Assembly (NCBI GenBank): GCA_040389185.1
Contig: JAZKAJ010000011.1
Location: forward strand, 1,033 to 65,032
Direction of reading: 5' to 3'
Origin: Patescibacteria group bacterium
Lineage (GTDB): Bacteria; Patescibacteriota; Minisyncoccia; Phycocordibacterales; CAIRYW01
DNA length: 64,000 nt
Position 1 is the stretch's first letter. Every line of letters begins with the position of its first letter. Both the position numbers and the translations under genes were made by a program. Shown one piece after another: positions 2,969-60,784 of the stretch. The notes beneath the pieces are model-generated. The model did no database searches. It worked only from the letters and a program-made list of their open reading frames with translations, and was not told the DNA's origin.

Positions 2969-2987
2969 TGTACTTCTTTAAGTTTTA

Positions 2988-3029
2988 AAAACAAAACCCT
3001 TCGCCTTAGGCGAAGGGTTTTGTTTTTAA
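2988..3029. terminator. bidirectional intrinsic terminator hairpin
   Basis: aaaacccttcgcc-ttag-ggcgaagggtttt with flanking A and T runs, between convergent genes. Confidence 0.55.
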
Positions 3030-11069: not shown

Positions 11070-11264
11070 TCATCCAGTTGGACCGCGAGTACGCTTATCG
11101 AACCTTACAGGTTCAGTACACCTTTTGGTGATTTTGTTTCGTTCCTCACAAAATCAGCTCAAAAGGTTTTCGATTCCAACACGCAAGTGCCCCACACTTG
11201 CTTGGACGCACAAAAATACAAAAACCTCAGACGTTGGACGTCTGAGGTTTTTGTATTTTTGTGC
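11070..11264 (+). repeat. tRNA 3'-half mimic structured element, type-2 copy D (partner tRNA-Lys), ending in a 26-bp perfect hairpin/terminator
   Basis: The conserved block gttggaccgcgagtacgcttatcgaaccttacaggttcagtacaccttttgg is shared with 52770-52823 in the opposite orientation. ggttttcgattccaac matches the tRNA-Lys T-arm and ttggacgcac matches the tRNA-Lys acceptor 3' strand. The hairpin gcacaaaaatacaaaaacctcagacg/cgtctgaggtttttgtatttttgtgc spans 11208-11264. Confidence 0.6.
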
Positions 11265-20145: not shown

Positions 20146-20463
20146 TTATTTAATCGAATAAGCGAACTGAAGCATGCCGTTTGTTTGCGGATAAAAATCA
20201 AATAAAGTCTCAAAATTATCTTGATTTTCAGATGTCTGGAATTTGACATACTTTAAATTGGTCTTTTCTTCAAACCACTTTTTTAAAACTTCATCAACCT
20301 TTATATCTTTTGTTTGCTTCTTGAAGAGTCTGGATAGAAATACTATGTCAGCACAAACAATAATTTTACATAAAATACTACCATTATCGTCTTCAATAAA
20401 ACTCCTTTGCCAAAAAACATCAGCATGCCAATCCTCTTTAATATTTCCTAGAATTAATTTCAC
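20146..20463 (-). CDS. hypothetical small protein (second gene of the nuclease operon)
   Basis: 105 aa; its start overlaps the upstream gene's stop by 4 nt (ATGA), implying translational coupling. Confidence 0.4.
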   Translation of the reverse strand: MKLILGNIKEDWHADVFWQRSFIEDDNGSILCKIIVCADIVFLSRLFKKQTKDIKVDEVLKKWFEEKTNLKYVKFQTSENQDNFETLFDFYPQTNGMLQFAYSIK

Positions 20464-21683
20464 AGTTTTGATCTTAAATTTTTAAGGTTTTCGAGTAATT
20501 CATCATAGAGAATGAAGTTTATATTTTTCAATGATGATCCAAGCTTCCTGAAATCAGCTGACTCTTTTTTATTTTTGAACTGCTTGCTTGTACCAGCAAT
20601 AATATATCCTCGCGGTCTTACCACCTGTATATCAATACCTTTTTTATTTTTTACAGCACGAATATATGCGTCAGAATTATGAACGATCTCATCAGTGTAA
20701 TTTTCTATTTGAGCAATAGCCATTGAAACATCCGGCTTCCAATAATAATTATCATGATCTTTATCAAAACTAAGCAATGAAACATCATGTTTCTTTATTT
20801 CAAAAACATCAACAAATCCATATACATCCACTAATACGAAGTCGGGGTAGCTAACACTAATACTTACATTTTGTTTTTCAATTGCAGTGACATAATTGGC
20901 CATAAATCGAAACACCTTTTCACTAAGAAATTTTTGCCAATCATTTTCGGAAATGCTTTTTTTAGCCAAATTTGCCTCAAACTCTTTAATAACTTCATCA
21001 AGATAAATTCTATCTGTAGTAGTTTTAGCGCTTTTAATTAGTGTAGCGCGCCCATTTTTTATTCCTCGTTTTTTACCTTTAAGAGAACCTTCAAATATTT
21101 TCGGGAAGAAGTTATTAAGCGACTCAAGATCCTCCTCATTTAGCCTTTGAGCTACTTTCTTACGTCGTAAGAGAGCAGCAATCTCACCTGCCTTATACTC
21201 ATCAAAATCGTCAGTAGAAATCTTTATGTCTTTTGGAAACTTAGTACTTAAAAAAGATGCTACAGCACTTCGTAACTCATTATTACTGTCTTCGTTAATA
21301 CGACCAAGTTTAATAAGAAGATTTTTTATGTCTAAAAGCGGCAGAACAACAGAAACCTTATGCTTTCCTTTATGAACCTTCTTTGTCTTCTTGGAAACAA
21401 TAAGTTCAAGAACTTTGGATCCCGCTAAATGCTCCTTCAGAGCAGTAAGGAGGAAAATTCCTTTTTTTCCAAAACCATAACCTTTTTTATTAAGATAAAG
21501 TCCTGAAGGAAGACCTTGATAACCTTCGAGAGTAATACTTGATACTTGTTTTGATTTTGCAGGTTGTAAATAGTAGATGGTCTTATCTGATTTAGGATAT
21601 ACCTCATATACACAAAAGTCAGGTTTATCAGACGCATAATGACGTTCTGGAATTTCAATCTTTTTATCTTTTTTTGCAACCAT
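20460..21683 (-). CDS. PD-(D/E)xK nuclease-domain protein, Shedu (DUF4263)-like or RecB/Cas4-like C-terminal domain, lysine-rich N-terminal region
   Basis: 407 aa. The C-terminal region shows the ordered motifs YPDFVLVD, then DVFEIKK ((D/E)xK), then AIAQIENY (QxxxY), as in RecB-family and Shedu-type nucleases. The N-terminal 280 aa are K-rich with no recognised domain. The Shedu assignment is made from motifs only. Confidence 0.5.
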   Translation of the reverse strand: MVAKKDKKIEIPERHYASDKPDFCVYEVYPKSDKTIYYLQPAKSKQVSSITLEGYQGLPSGLYLNKKGYGFGKKGIFLLTALKEHLAGSKVLELIVSKKTKKVHKGKHKVSVVLPLLDIKNLLIKLGRINEDSNNELRSAVASFLSTKFPKDIKISTDDFDEYKAGEIAALLRRKKVAQRLNEEDLESLNNFFPKIFEGSLKGKKRGIKNGRATLIKSAKTTTDRIYLDEVIKEFEANLAKKSISENDWQKFLSEKVFRFMANYVTAIEKQNVSISVSYPDFVLVDVYGFVDVFEIKKHDVSLLSFDKDHDNYYWKPDVSMAIAQIENYTDEIVHNSDAYIRAVKNKKGIDIQVVRPRGYIIAGTSKQFKNKKESADFRKLGSSLKNINFILYDELLENLKNLRSKL

Positions 21684-22931: not shown

Positions 22932-23408
22932 ATGAAGGCTCGCAAGGTAATTATTATTTTGGATAATATCAGAAGCAACCATAATGTAGGCTCTATTTTC
23001 CGTACCGCAGATGCTCTCGGTGTATCCAAAATTTATCTTTGTGGGACAACACCGAAACCAATAGATAGGTTTGAAAGACCTGTAGGGGAAATAGCCAAGA
23101 CTGCGCTCGGAGCGGAGAAGAGTATTTCTTGGGAGTATGCAAAAACTACTCTGGGTGTAATAAAAAGATTGAAAAAGAATGGAACAGAGATTATTGCGAT
23201 TGAGCAATTTGATAATTCAGTCGATTATAAAAAAGTAAAACCAAAAGAAGATGTTGCATTCGTACTCGGCAATGAAGTAGACGGAGTAAACAAAAACATT
23301 TTAAAACTTTGTGATGTTGTGGCAGAGATTCCAATGAAAGGAGGGAAGGAGTCTTTGAATGTTGCTGTCGCATGTGGTACTGCATTATTTCGCATACTAA
23401 ATTATTAA
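22932..23408 (+). CDS. SpoU/TrmH-family RNA 2'-O-methyltransferase
   Basis: VIIILDNIRSNHNVGSIFRTADALG, then FVLGNEVDGV and ESLNVAVACG (SPOUT knot motifs). Confidence 0.75.
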   Translation: MKARKVIIILDNIRSNHNVGSIFRTADALGVSKIYLCGTTPKPIDRFERPVGEIAKTALGAEKSISWEYAKTTLGVIKRLKKNGTEIIAIEQFDNSVDYKKVKPKEDVAFVLGNEVDGVNKNILKLCDVVAEIPMKGGKESLNVAVACGTALFRILNY

Positions 23409-23451
23409 AAATAAATAACAATCTCACGATCGTGAGATTGTTATTTATTTT
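23408..23451. terminator. 44-bp perfect palindrome (bidirectional terminator-like), copy 1
   Basis: aaaataaataacaatctcac-gatc-gtgagattgttatttatttt; near-identical second copy at 23954-23995. Confidence 0.6.
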
Positions 23452-23472
23452 GATCAGTATATAATTTATATT

Positions 23473-23958
23473 ATGTCACTCATACTTGATATATTGGAGG
23501 AGTTGTCGAATGTGGAAATACGTTACAAAGGAGGTGTTGGGATCAATCTTTTTGGTATGCCGAGATTCGAGTCTCAAAATAAACAGTCTTTGAAATCTAG
23601 TTTTTATAGATTAAGTCGGGGTGGTTATATTGAAAAAGAGGCTAGCGGATGGAGGTTAACGGAAACCGGTAAAAAATATTTAAAATCTGACCATTCAAAC
23701 TATAAGACTTTTTCATCACCTTTTAAAAAAGAAAGTCCTAAAAATCTTATTGTAATATTCGATATACCAGAAGAGCGCAGGTCAGAAAGAGACTGGTTTA
23801 GAAGTCATCTAAGAAGATTTGATTATTTGATGATTCAAAGGAGTGTGTGGGTAGGGCCCTCTCCGTTGCCGAAGGAATTTCAGGACTATCTTAAGAAGTT
23901 AAAATTAAAATCCTGCTTAAAGACCTTTAAACTTTCTAAAAGTTATAAGGCTAAATAA
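23473..23958 (+). CDS. winged-helix domain protein with a C-terminal Cas2-like motif
   Basis: 161 aa. N-terminal wHTH-like region (YRLSRGGYIEKEASGWRLTETGKKYL). C-terminal LIVIFDIPEERRSERDWFRSHLRRFDYLMIQRSVWVG resembles the Cas2/PaaX-C core (beta1 xDIP...RR...L...G..RIQ.SVW). Confidence 0.35.
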   Translation: MSLILDILEELSNVEIRYKGGVGINLFGMPRFESQNKQSLKSSFYRLSRGGYIEKEASGWRLTETGKKYLKSDHSNYKTFSSPFKKESPKNLIVIFDIPEERRSERDWFRSHLRRFDYLMIQRSVWVGPSPLPKEFQDYLKKLKLKSCLKTFKLSKSYKAK

Positions 23959-23995
23959 AATAACAACTTCACGATCGTGAAGTTGTTATTTTATT
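23954..23995. terminator. 42-bp perfect palindrome, copy 2
   Basis: aataaaataacaacttcac-gatc-gtgaagttgttattttatt; same tcacgatcgtga core as copy 1, with arm substitutions that preserve pairing. Confidence 0.6.
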
Positions 23996-23997
23996 CT

Positions 23998-24717
23998 CTA
24001 TTTCTTCATTCCCAGTTCTGTGAGAAACTGCTGAAGCTCACCACCCGTGATTCTTCGAACAGTATTTTCTTTCATTGCTCCGACTTTGATATTCATGATT
24101 CGGACACGGGTTAGATCCTTCACTTGGTTTTTGAGTGCTTCTACCATTCTTCGTACCTGTCGTTTTTTACCTTCAGTAATAACGATACTGAATTTTCTGT
24201 ATCCCAATATTGTCACAAGACAAGGCTTTGTTTTGTAAGTGAGCTTTGAGTATTCTTCTTTGATGACCACTCCTTTTTCGAGGGCTTTGGCGAATGCTTC
24301 GTCGATCTTTGTTTCTGTCTCTACAATGTATTCCTTTTCGTGATTTTCTTCGGGATTCAAGAGTTTGCCTGTGATTCGTCCGTCGTTTGTGAGAATAATA
24401 AGCCCATGCGAATCCTTATCGAGCCGTCCGAGAGGGAAAACCTTTGCTCCTTCAGTCTTTCCTTTAATCATCTTGTTGATATCCATATCATCCCCTTTGG
24501 CAGAGTGAGTAAGAACGTCTCGTGGTTTGTTGTATGCGAAATAGAGGTGTCCAATTTCTTTGGAATCCTTTTTGACCGTGACTTTATCTGTCGGTTTTAC
24601 ATCATCGCCAAGTTGTGCGATTTTGCCATTGATTGATACTCTTTTGGCTTTGATCATCTCGTCTGCTTTACGGCGAGATGCGATATTTTGTTCTGCGAGG
24701 TATTTATTGATTCTCAT
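23998..24717 (-). CDS. rRNA pseudouridine synthase, RsuA/RluB family (S4 domain plus catalytic domain)
   Basis: N-terminal S4 (MRINKYLAEQNIASRRKADEMIKAKRVSING); catalytic-aspartate motif LGRLDKDSHGLIILTNDG. Confidence 0.8.
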   Translation of the reverse strand: MRINKYLAEQNIASRRKADEMIKAKRVSINGKIAQLGDDVKPTDKVTVKKDSKEIGHLYFAYNKPRDVLTHSAKGDDMDINKMIKGKTEGAKVFPLGRLDKDSHGLIILTNDGRITGKLLNPEENHEKEYIVETETKIDEAFAKALEKGVVIKEEYSKLTYKTKPCLVTILGYRKFSIVITEGKKRQVRRMVEALKNQVKDLTRVRIMNIKVGAMKENTVRRITGGELQQFLTELGMKK

Positions 24718-24818: not shown

Positions 24819-25469
24819 TTACTCTTCGCTGTCTTCCGAATGCCTGAGGCCGAAGTGCTTAAGAAAATGGAACAATTCAAGGACTCGCTTTTCAGGTGTA
24901 TCATCACCTGGATGATGTCCTGTCTCGGGATGGTCTGTGAGATTAAGGTGTTTTTTCAAATCGGATGTAGGAGTAGCTGCGAGATCGCTTAGAGTATTCA
25001 CTCCTGCTTTGCAGAAGACTTTTGTCCAGCGAGAACCACAGAGTGAGAGTGGGAGTGCATCGATCGCCGCCTTTTCTTTTGGTCCAGGTTTGACGGTAAG
25101 TCCAAATTGCAGATTAAGATCGTAGATTGCTCTTTGTATTTCAGCGTGGCCGGGTGGACCAACGTTTGAAATGTAGAAATCTTGCGCCTTTCTCACAAGT
25201 TGTCCTAAAAGCAGATAACCATTCATCTTCAGTGCCTTCGCAACACGATTTGAGATGTCGTAAGTGACCACAAAATTGTCGATAGGCATGGCCAACAGAG
25301 CATCCATATCGATTGTTGAAGTAATCGCAATCTCGATATGCATTCCGCGTGCCATTTTCGTTGTGAGCACCACTGTTTCATTTGAACTTATAATCTTCTG
25401 CTGTTTGAGCCATCTCTGGATGAGTGTTTGTAGTTGGCGGCTCTTTTTTGTGAACAGTTCGTGTTTCAT
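24819..25469 (-). CDS. hypothetical protein with two helix-hairpin-helix-like motifs
   Basis: 216 aa; HhH-like segments ISNRVAKALKMNGYLLLGQLV and RWTKVFCKAGVNTLSDL. Confidence 0.3.
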   Translation of the reverse strand: MKHELFTKKSRQLQTLIQRWLKQQKIISSNETVVLTTKMARGMHIEIAITSTIDMDALLAMPIDNFVVTYDISNRVAKALKMNGYLLLGQLVRKAQDFYISNVGPPGHAEIQRAIYDLNLQFGLTVKPGPKEKAAIDALPLSLCGSRWTKVFCKAGVNTLSDLAATPTSDLKKHLNLTDHPETGHHPGDDTPEKRVLELFHFLKHFGLRHSEDSEE

Positions 25470-29091: not shown

Positions 29092-29126
29092 AAAAACAAA
29101 ACCCGCGAAAGCGGGTTTTGTTTTTG
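29092..29126 (+). terminator. intrinsic terminator
   Basis: aaaacccgc-gaaa-gcgggtttt followed by gttttt. Confidence 0.6.
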
Positions 29127-60584: not shown

Positions 60585-60784
60585 TATACAGGAGTCTCTC
60601 CTTCGACTAAATTTTGCTACCCGCAAAATTTGTCTAGGCACCAGCTCACTTGTTTTGAAAGCTTTCAAAACATAGCTCCGCTGTTCGAGTCCTAACGAAA
60701 GTGCGTTTAGCACTTTCTTATCGCCCACAAAAATACAAAAACACCAGATATTATCTGGTGTTTTTGTATTTTTGTGGGCGATAC
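60585..60784 (+). repeat. tRNA 3'-half mimic structured element, type-1 copy B (partner tRNA-Val), ending in a 31-bp perfect hairpin that includes the tRNA-Val 3' end
   Basis: Its 5' end tatacaggagtc is antisense-like to the tRNA-Val T-arm. The core is cgactaaattttgc-taccc-gcaaaatttgtctaggcaccagctcac, followed by the hairpin tgttttgaaagctttcaaaaca. Sense T-arm copy ccgctgttcgagtcct and the hairpin aagtgcgtttagcactt follow, then the acceptor copy atcgccca. The palindrome 60720-60782 contains the A-rich run cacaaaaatacaaaaac. Confidence 0.65.

Follow-up and report, generated by a model that had tools for sequence, protein, structure and literature searches.

A truncated PaaX-like protein of Patescibacteria, encoded between two palindromes that may be its own binding sites

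Two perfect palindromes in the genome of a member of the Patescibacteria enclose a single small gene, and the question they raise is what they are there for. The gene (23473-23958, + strand) lies in the 64-kb stretch of DNA analysed here (hereafter the window; 38% G+C), which comes from a metagenome-assembled genome (MAG) of the Patescibacteria, and its 161-aa product is identical to a protein on record as 'V4469_02390, Patescibacteria group bacterium'. We call the gene and its product mini-PaaX. An earlier, sequence-only reading of the window had proposed that the palindromes are paired bidirectional terminators, dimeric binding sites of the encoded winged helix-turn-helix (wHTH) protein, or the ends of a small mobile cassette. 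To judge from the sequence comparisons described below, the second proposal is the best supported of the three, through the co-occurrence of palindrome and gene across the family, the fixed distance between palindrome and promoter, and the likeness of the twin copies at each locus. With modest confidence, we favour the view that the palindromes are cognate sites bound by mini-PaaX itself and that the upstream copy is an autoregulatory operator. A truncated PaaX-type autoregulator with twin cognate palindromes is the best reading of the locus and would be new, as we found no description of this family or of its palindrome element in the searchable literature.

Twin palindromes around the mini-PaaX gene

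The upstream palindrome (23408-23451) consists of two 22-nt arms, AAAATAAATAACAATCTCACGA and TCGTGAGATTGTTATTTATTTT, and the downstream one (23954-23995) of two 21-nt arms, AATAAAATAACAACTTCACGA and TCGTGAAGTTGTTATTTTATT. Neither has a loop, both are 100% self-complementary, as the sequence-only reading had stated, and they are 85% identical to each other. The first base of the upstream palindrome is the last base of the stop codon of a SpoU-like gene, and its centre lies 43 nt before the mini-PaaX ATG; the downstream palindrome includes the mini-PaaX stop codon and ends 2 nt short of the stop codon of a convergent pseudouridine synthase gene. Within the 64 kb, the core TCACGATCGTGA (at most 1 mismatch) and the 28-nt pattern TAACAAYYTCACNNNNGTGARRTTGTTA (at most 3 mismatches) are each found at these two sites only, and in neither case did any of 100 shuffles reach two matches. 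Both window palindromes represent a minority subtype of a wider family, with a CAC-N4-GTG core rather than TGC-N4-GCA and the symmetric blocks ACA-AYYT-CAC-N4-GTG-ARRT-TGT.

The palindromes accompany the gene across the family

Relatives of mini-PaaX number 372 in species-representative genomes, and the loci of the best 80 of these (596 kb in all) were compared. Nearly every family gene in this sample has a related palindrome of ~30 bp both upstream and just past its stop codon, with the consensus ACA-N3-TCTGC-N4-GCAGA-N3-TGT and outer arms that vary yet remain complementary. At least 12 of 16 arm positions are paired in 60/78 upstream and 61/78 downstream regions, against 10/266 control windows. 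Perfect palindromes with arms of at least 12 nt are likewise concentrated beside the family genes, 47 of the 94 falling within the ~3% of the sequence that flanks them, and 114 of 119 matches to a position weight matrix (PWM) of the element adjoin a family gene. Twin copies of a locus share 86% identity, copies from different loci 55%, and a copy's own partner ranked first in 23/32 loci. Paralogues within one genome carry differing palindrome arms. Where the relative orientation of the two flanking copies could be decided, it was inverted in 10 loci and direct in 4.

Individual loci illustrate what is kept and what is not. In the orthologous locus L081 (66% protein identity), which has the same neighbours on both sides, with the SpoU-like gene upstream, both palindromes keep the arms TAACAATCTCAC...GTGAGATTGTTA, with the central 4 nt TATG and CATG in place of GATC. 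The palindrome core to which the sequence-only reading had drawn attention is unique to the two sites in the window, but it is not the conserved part of the element. A more distant homologue (P0003, locus L082; 58% identity) has a twin pair of its own, GTAAACA...yAC-GATC-GTr...TGTTTAC. Loci with a CAC or GAC core (the window, L004, L024, L036, L047 and L077) lack an Arg at the position of K41; many loci with a TGC core have this Arg and many likewise lack it, a comparison confounded by phylogeny.

The constraint on the arms appears to act on DNA. Positions 8-10 from the centre are unpaired in many lineages (61-72% paired), so that the hairpin is weakened while the conserved blocks persist, and we did not find a sense-strand excess of G:T over A:C arm mismatches (23 vs 18 upstream, 18 vs 26 downstream). 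This absence of a bias compatible with G-U pairing points to a constraint on the DNA rather than on the mRNA.

The genes themselves have stayed in place for a long time. Clustering by neighbours yields at least nine groups of loci that keep their flanking genes even where protein identity between the genomes is only ~50%; one group runs ComEC, RNase H, Nudix, the family gene, RecJ, HIT and PGK, and another has Tmk upstream. The homologues are solitary genes at such housekeeping positions (RNase H, Nudix, RecJ, ComEC, Tmk), and the family consists of old paralogues passed on vertically. None of the 80 best loci shares the genomic position seen in the window.

Promoter geometry

The two flanking copies differ in their relation to transcription signals. 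A sigma-70-type promoter precedes mini-PaaX (23438-23465, + strand; 10 of 12 consensus matches), with the -35 box TTGTTA at 23438-23443, a 16-nt spacer and the -10 box TATAAT at 23460-23465. The -35 box sits within the right arm of the upstream palindrome, and the -10 box ends 7 nt before the ATG, with no Shine-Dalgarno (SD) sequence. This layout recurs among the homologous loci: TATAAT (at most 1 mismatch) is present in 70/79, ending 6-8 nt before the ATG in 61 of them, and an SD-like sequence in 0/79. The close -10 box and the lack of an SD sequence thus predict leaderless mRNAs across the family. Of the 60 loci with a good upstream palindrome, 40 have its centre 44-47 nt ahead of the ATG, and the distance from the centre to the -10 box is 32 or 35 nt in 33/47 loci; given this fixed spacing, the palindrome's outer block on the right-hand side (TTGTnn or TTGACA) constitutes the -35 hexamer. 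A palindromic site lying over the core promoter of the putative regulator and conserved with the gene across species is what would be expected of an autoregulatory operator. The downstream copy stands at varying distances from the stop codon and in most synteny groups has a convergent gene opposite, which argues that it is not a promoter element.

The mini-PaaX protein

The sequence-only reading had described a wHTH protein whose C-terminal segment follows a Cas2/PaaX-C pattern. The wHTH and the Cas2-like fold are borne out by Pfam, TIGR02277, structure prediction and fold search, while the PaaX_C assignment is not: PaaX_C has no Pfam match on the protein, and the matching domain is PaaX_M (PF20803; residues 93-155, E 2.2e-15, 56.9 bits against a cut-off of 24). 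CRISPR_Cas2 (PF09827) scores 24.6 bits, barely above its gathering cut-off of 23.8, and the Cas2 model TIGR01573 remains below its own (23.0 against 24.5). The sequence fits PaaX_M much better than Cas2, and the fold is Cas2-like. Residues 36-153 are collinear with positions 33-150 of the 279 of TIGR02277, the NCBIfam equivalog model of PaaX, at a score of 32.9 bits against an equivalog cut-off of 264.55. The protein ends where the effector domain of PaaX would start, and the C-terminal helical ligand-binding domain is absent.

An AlphaFold2 (AF2) model, with a predicted local distance difference test (pLDDT) score of 79.8, shows helices and a beta-hairpin wing in residues 1-76 and a beta-alpha-beta-beta-alpha-beta arrangement in residues 92-153. 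The wHTH corresponds to about nt 23473-23700 and the Cas2-like ferredoxin fold, approximately residues 88-155, to nt 23734-23937. Comparison of structure with Cas2, VapD and PaaX had been proposed as a check, and a fold search with the AF2 model matched all three: the nearest solved structures are those of the PaaX family (3kfw, 8a39, 3l09), followed by Cas2 and VapD, which match the C-terminal half. The N-terminal half matches the wHTH domains of PadR, MarR and CggR, and the matches to the Cas2 entries 5zyf, 5g4d, 4qr0 and 3exc have probabilities of 0.87-0.97. A search of the PDB with the family's sequence profile returned weak matches to S19e (wHTH) and Cas2 only and missed PaaX, which was found by the fold search instead. 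Matches to the Cas2 models of PADLOC are weak (E about 1e-5), and the family is not a catalogued defence component there.

PaaX is a phenylacetyl-CoA-responsive repressor of paa operons in E. coli and Pseudomonas. The PaaX proteins (8A39, 3L09, 3KFW) share with mini-PaaX a collinear N-terminal wHTH and central Cas2-like domain. Unlike them, mini-PaaX is half the size, lacks the ligand-binding domain, has no paa genes nearby and occurs as several paralogues per genome, in Patescibacteria only. With Cas2 and its standalone relative VapD it shares the ferredoxin-like fold and the hallmark motifs; it differs in being fused to a wHTH, in a window without a CRISPR array and beside neighbours that, where checked, are not cas genes. 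Mini-PaaX is a truncated PaaX-like protein, and neither a PaaX orthologue nor a CRISPR Cas2.

More than 1100 homologues of ~160 aa were found, all in Patescibacteria. Their database labels are inconsistent (Cas2, PaaX or hypothetical), and hundreds of entries are named 'CRISPR-associated endonuclease Cas2' or 'PaaX', both of which are wrong. In the family alignment the Cas2-like half is far more conserved than the variable wHTH half: D97, R106, W108, R110, Q122, S124, W126, the motif GPSPLP, F136 and Y139 are invariant, and the Cas2 hallmarks appear as [FY]DI at the end of beta-1 (its Asp being D97) and Q-x-S-V-[FW]. A MAG often encodes two or three members, and the paralogues of one genome are old (~50% identical) rather than recent copies. 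Three loci of one synteny group also contain a second, weak and partial family match (E about 3e-8 to 5e-8). It lies on the other strand beyond the 3' end of the main gene, at a distance of 140-165 bp in L018 (4616-4780, -) and L045 (4638-4802, -) and of about 1.5 kb in L019 (5969-6226, -), and could be a convergent paralogue that has decayed or has diverged very far.

Proposed mode of action

We propose that mini-PaaX dimerises through its Cas2-like domain, as PaaX does, and that the pair of winged helices in the dimer would contact the symmetric palindrome blocks, ACA-N3-TCTGC-N4-GCAGA-N3-TGT in most of the family and the CAC-N4-GTG version in the window subfamily. Such dimer binding is inferred from the anatomy of the locus and from analogy to PaaX. 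Since the right arm of the upstream copy is the -35 box and its centre lies ~43-47 nt before a leaderless start, occupancy of this copy would control the gene's own transcription, most likely by autorepression, as for PaaX at the Px promoter. The downstream copy may be a second site that stabilises a repression loop or acts as a roadblock. In the window both copies, as perfect hairpins at stop codons, would probably double as intrinsic terminators of three genes, and copies found away from any family gene would be either additional sites for the protein or the result of spread by the element itself.

The parallel with PaaX would extend to its target. In E. coli, PaaX recognises a long palindrome whose half-sites stand far apart, TGATTC-N27-GAATCA, and occludes RNA polymerase at its own promoter, which is thereby repressed (PMC9493321). 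The putative mini-PaaX sites differ in lying on both sides of the gene and in having further dispersed copies, even inside genes.

Orphan copies and other complications

Several observations weigh against the operator view as just set out. A site centred at about -44 could mediate repression or activation; by analogy, repression is the probable outcome. The invariant residues lie mostly in the Cas2-like half, which hints at a function beyond dimerisation. Arm positions 14-17, counted from the centre, are not part of the conserved blocks and show free variation, and they nevertheless remain 94-98% complementary, against 31-36% in shuffles; they differ even between close orthologues with a nearly identical recognition helix. 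A simple operator does not predict such covariation, which suggests either that a hairpin or cruciform is under selection or that the arms originated by palindrome copying.

A further complication is that many copies are not beside a family gene at all. A scan of metagenome contigs with the family consensus gave 124 matches, and a filter requiring at least 15/17 arm pairs removed 86 chance matches that were non-palindromic outside the fixed bases. The remaining 38 are true extended palindromes, all on low-G+C contigs. When adjacency was judged by a hidden Markov model (HMM) search of all reading frames within 1 kb, 13 of the 38 adjoined a family gene and 25, about two thirds, were orphans; a PWM scan (5 orphans in about 590 kb) puts orphan density at an estimated ~8 per Mb. 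Some orphans follow the stop codon of an unrelated gene, some lie close to other promoters, and others sit in frame within genes, with presence/absence polymorphism; an insertional, dispersed repeat behaves in this way. The sequence-only reading had held that a palindrome found behind many unrelated genes as a generic terminator would count against its interpretation; copies do lie behind and inside unrelated genes, but they belong to a specific dispersed repeat and not to a generic terminator. Some even stand directly after a separate generic terminator (L085, L033).

In-frame copies were found in at least six unrelated genes and are always translated as a T-N-S-A-M-A-E-F-V-like peptide (L143, 1684-1709; L090, 938-963; L195, 1214-1239; L202, 5001-5026; L066, 6162-6193; also in L134, L154, L158, L110 and L179). 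The hosts are MiaA, proteins that resemble alanine racemase, reverse transcriptase (RT), Fmt and TatD (as read from the translations), and two uncharacterised open reading frames (L179, L066). The insert occupies one and the same position in four MiaA orthologues, with arms that differ yet stay complementary; among the 120 closest MiaA homologues it is present in 28 and absent in about 80.

The same surface loop of MiaA contains, in other lineages of Paceibacteria, a second and unrelated palindrome family (L204, 301-1209, CTTTCCCCTAGGTCGGACCTAGGGGAAAG; L205, 209-1123, TTTCCACAGGTCGGACCTGTGGAAA), translated as SPRSDLGES or FHRSDLWK. Palindromes thus seem to have a preferred insertion site in this loop.

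One orphan, L013 2118-2149, has the same arms and core as the palindromes of that locus's family gene. It precedes an opposite-strand purD-like gene (N-terminus MNKLKILIIGSGGREHA), ~38 nt ahead of its start, and is a possible further target of regulation. As a regulon, the orphans at large proved too weak a candidate: a -10 box stands at the canonical 31-36 nt from the centre in 7/48 orphan sides. The arms of orphans match the type of the adjacent gene in some cases only.

Alternative explanations

The dispersed copies invite comparison with the repetitive extragenic palindromic (REP) sequences of Proteobacteria and the REP-associated tyrosine transposases (RAYTs). It is possible, although we think it unlikely, that the palindrome is first of all a dispersed insertional repeat and mini-PaaX its dedicated, sequence-specific Cas2-fold nuclease or handler, which mobilises, copies or maintains the repeats. 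The gene would then stand between its own repeats for the reason that RAYT genes stand between REPs, and the overlap with the promoter would be secondary. In both systems a vertically inherited gene stands between two short palindromic repeats that are often inverted (10 loci against 4 direct in the present family), the same repeat is dispersed elsewhere in the genome, and several gene/repeat families can share a genome, as do the mini-PaaX paralogues, each with its own arm variant. RAYT genes have been described as inherited at fixed positions, as the family genes are. The numerical excess of orphans, about twice the gene-flanking copies (25 vs 13), the in-frame copies, the polymorphic MiaA insert, the invariant Cas2 hallmarks (D97 at the end of beta-1, Q-x-S-V-W) and the covariation of the outer arm positions are all in keeping with such a role. 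To our knowledge, however, no Cas2-fold protein acts as a transposase, which counts against this explanation; mini-PaaX, in which only PaaX_M and Cas2 domains were found, is not an HUH/Y1 (IS200/IS605-like) transposase as RAYTs are. The density of the repeat, ~8 orphans per Mb and none in the 64-kb window, is far lower than that of REPs, and copies also lie inside genes. An operator, but not an insertion, would be expected to keep the rigid promoter geometry that the upstream copy has across at least nine old paralogue groups, and the insert at one position in four MiaA orthologues is compatible with a single old insertion rather than ongoing mobility. A repeat handler of this kind would in any case still need the binding that the operator view proposes, and would extend that view rather than replace it.

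A related and marginally more tentative idea is that of an undescribed repeat-protein partnership, in which each paralogue, a wHTH joined to a Cas2 fold, has its own variant of a 34-44-bp perfect palindrome, both flanking the gene and scattered, in-frame insertions in housekeeping genes included, which it recognises and cuts, copies or maintains; the pair would be a functional counterpart of RAYT/REP on a Cas2 fold. The orphan copies, as distinct from the two in the window, also recall the Rickettsia palindromic elements (RPEs), which are likewise translated in frame in unrelated proteins and present or absent among orthologues; the patescibacterial element differs from RPEs in being much shorter (about 34-44 bp), in being a perfect palindrome and in having a dedicated gene family.

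We consider it improbable that the palindromes are structural signals only, that is, hairpin terminators or insulators combined with a -35 box, with no relationship between protein and DNA and with the likeness of the copies within a locus due to gene conversion of nearby repeats. Part of this explanation probably holds locally. As RNA, the upstream palindrome folds at -24.2 kcal/mol (z -8.1) and the downstream one at -22.7 kcal/mol on the + strand and -24.1 on the - strand (z about -8); both abut stop codons with A/T-rich runs on either side, and a terminator scan flags the downstream palindrome as terminator-like. About ten other long perfect hairpins with an A-run and a T-run stand in the window, mostly at gene ends, from which it is evident that the organism uses such hairpins as terminators. 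Both palindromes are probably also intrinsic terminators for the SpoU-like, mini-PaaX and convergent pseudouridine synthase genes. The terminator proposal of the sequence-only reading thus retains plausibility as a second, local role (-22 to -24 kcal/mol at three stop codons), but not as the general function, since many homologous loci have a divergent gene upstream, so that the copy on that side has nothing to terminate. Palindromy itself is common in the window; the two copies stand out by their sequence family and twin arrangement. Covariation of the outer arm positions, as in a stem, and the presence of other, unrelated palindrome families in these genomes fit a structural role as well. 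Generic terminators, by contrast, would not keep the blocks ACA, TCTGC, GCAGA and TGT where the proteins are only ~50% identical, nor would they be concentrated beside one gene family (114/119 PWM matches) or follow directly behind a separate terminator, as some orphans do. The incomplete pairing of positions 8-10 in many lineages whose blocks persist and the lack of a G-U bias on the sense strand argue in the same direction. Against Rfam, the palindromes gave only sub-threshold matches to miRNA hairpins.

That the palindromes are transposon-like inverted repeats or integron attC-like ends of a mobile cassette, which brought the gene between SpoU and the pseudouridine synthase, is very unlikely and is contradicted by the evidence: two similar and often inverted repeats do bracket the gene, several paralogues share a genome and the window position recurs in none of the 80 best loci, but at least nine groups conserve their neighbours at ~50% protein identity, L081 conserves both the SpoU-like gene upstream and the sequence beyond the second palindrome, the paralogues within a genome are old, no transposase or integrase adjoins the gene, and no relatives were found in 2.9 million viral contigs. 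The integron attC variant of this proposal is ruled out by the sequence-conserved centre and arms, the syntenic genes and the lack of an integrase.

What follows from the preferred and the alternative readings differs. Patescibacteria have tiny genomes with very few recognisable regulators, and if the operator view is true, a multi-paralogue family with its own cis-element and a leaderless promoter would be among the first directly testable regulatory modules of the phylum. If it is true that the protein spreads or maintains the dispersed copies, it would represent a new repeat-associated class built on the Cas2 fold and a non-CRISPR role for a Cas2-like nuclease, and the RAYT-like explanation, if true, would bear on how palindromic repeats became substrates of Cas2-like proteins. 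The in-frame insertions are instances of short palindromes reshaping the loops of proteins in these streamlined genomes.

Neighbouring genes and other palindromes of the window

The gene upstream of mini-PaaX encodes a SpoU-family RNA methyltransferase (22932-23408, + strand; PF00588, E 5e-34), and the convergent gene downstream an RsuA/RluB-type pseudouridine synthase with an S4 domain (23998-24717, - strand; PF00849, E 1e-18; PF01479, E 9e-11). The neighbours checked, which besides these two comprise a PNPOx-like protein, Fpg and a Shedu-like protein, include no paa (phenylacetate catabolism) genes and no cas genes, and no transposase, integrase or other recombinase adjoins mini-PaaX. Tandem Repeats Finder (TRF) reports a single 8-bp microrepeat in the 64 kb and no CRISPR array, which agrees with the sequence-only reading that neither cas genes nor an array accompany the protein.

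About 1.8 kb upstream of the locus, a 407-aa protein (20460-21683, - strand) contains the C-terminal nuclease domain of Shedu SduA (PF14082, E 1e-25) and is likely the product of an anti-phage defence gene. A 216-aa protein (24819-25469, - strand) has as its only match a weak one to the C-terminal domain (CTD) of the RNA polymerase alpha subunit (PF03118, E 6e-6) and is, on that match, an unusual standalone alpha-CTD-like protein.

Other palindromes of the window also form related pairs. Those at 11208-11264 and 60719-60783 have common arms, CACAAAAATACAAAAAC, and differing apical stems, and the same is true of those at 2985-3029 and 29092-29125, with the common arms AAAAACAAAACCC; these pairs suggest that further families of dispersed hairpins exist in this genome.

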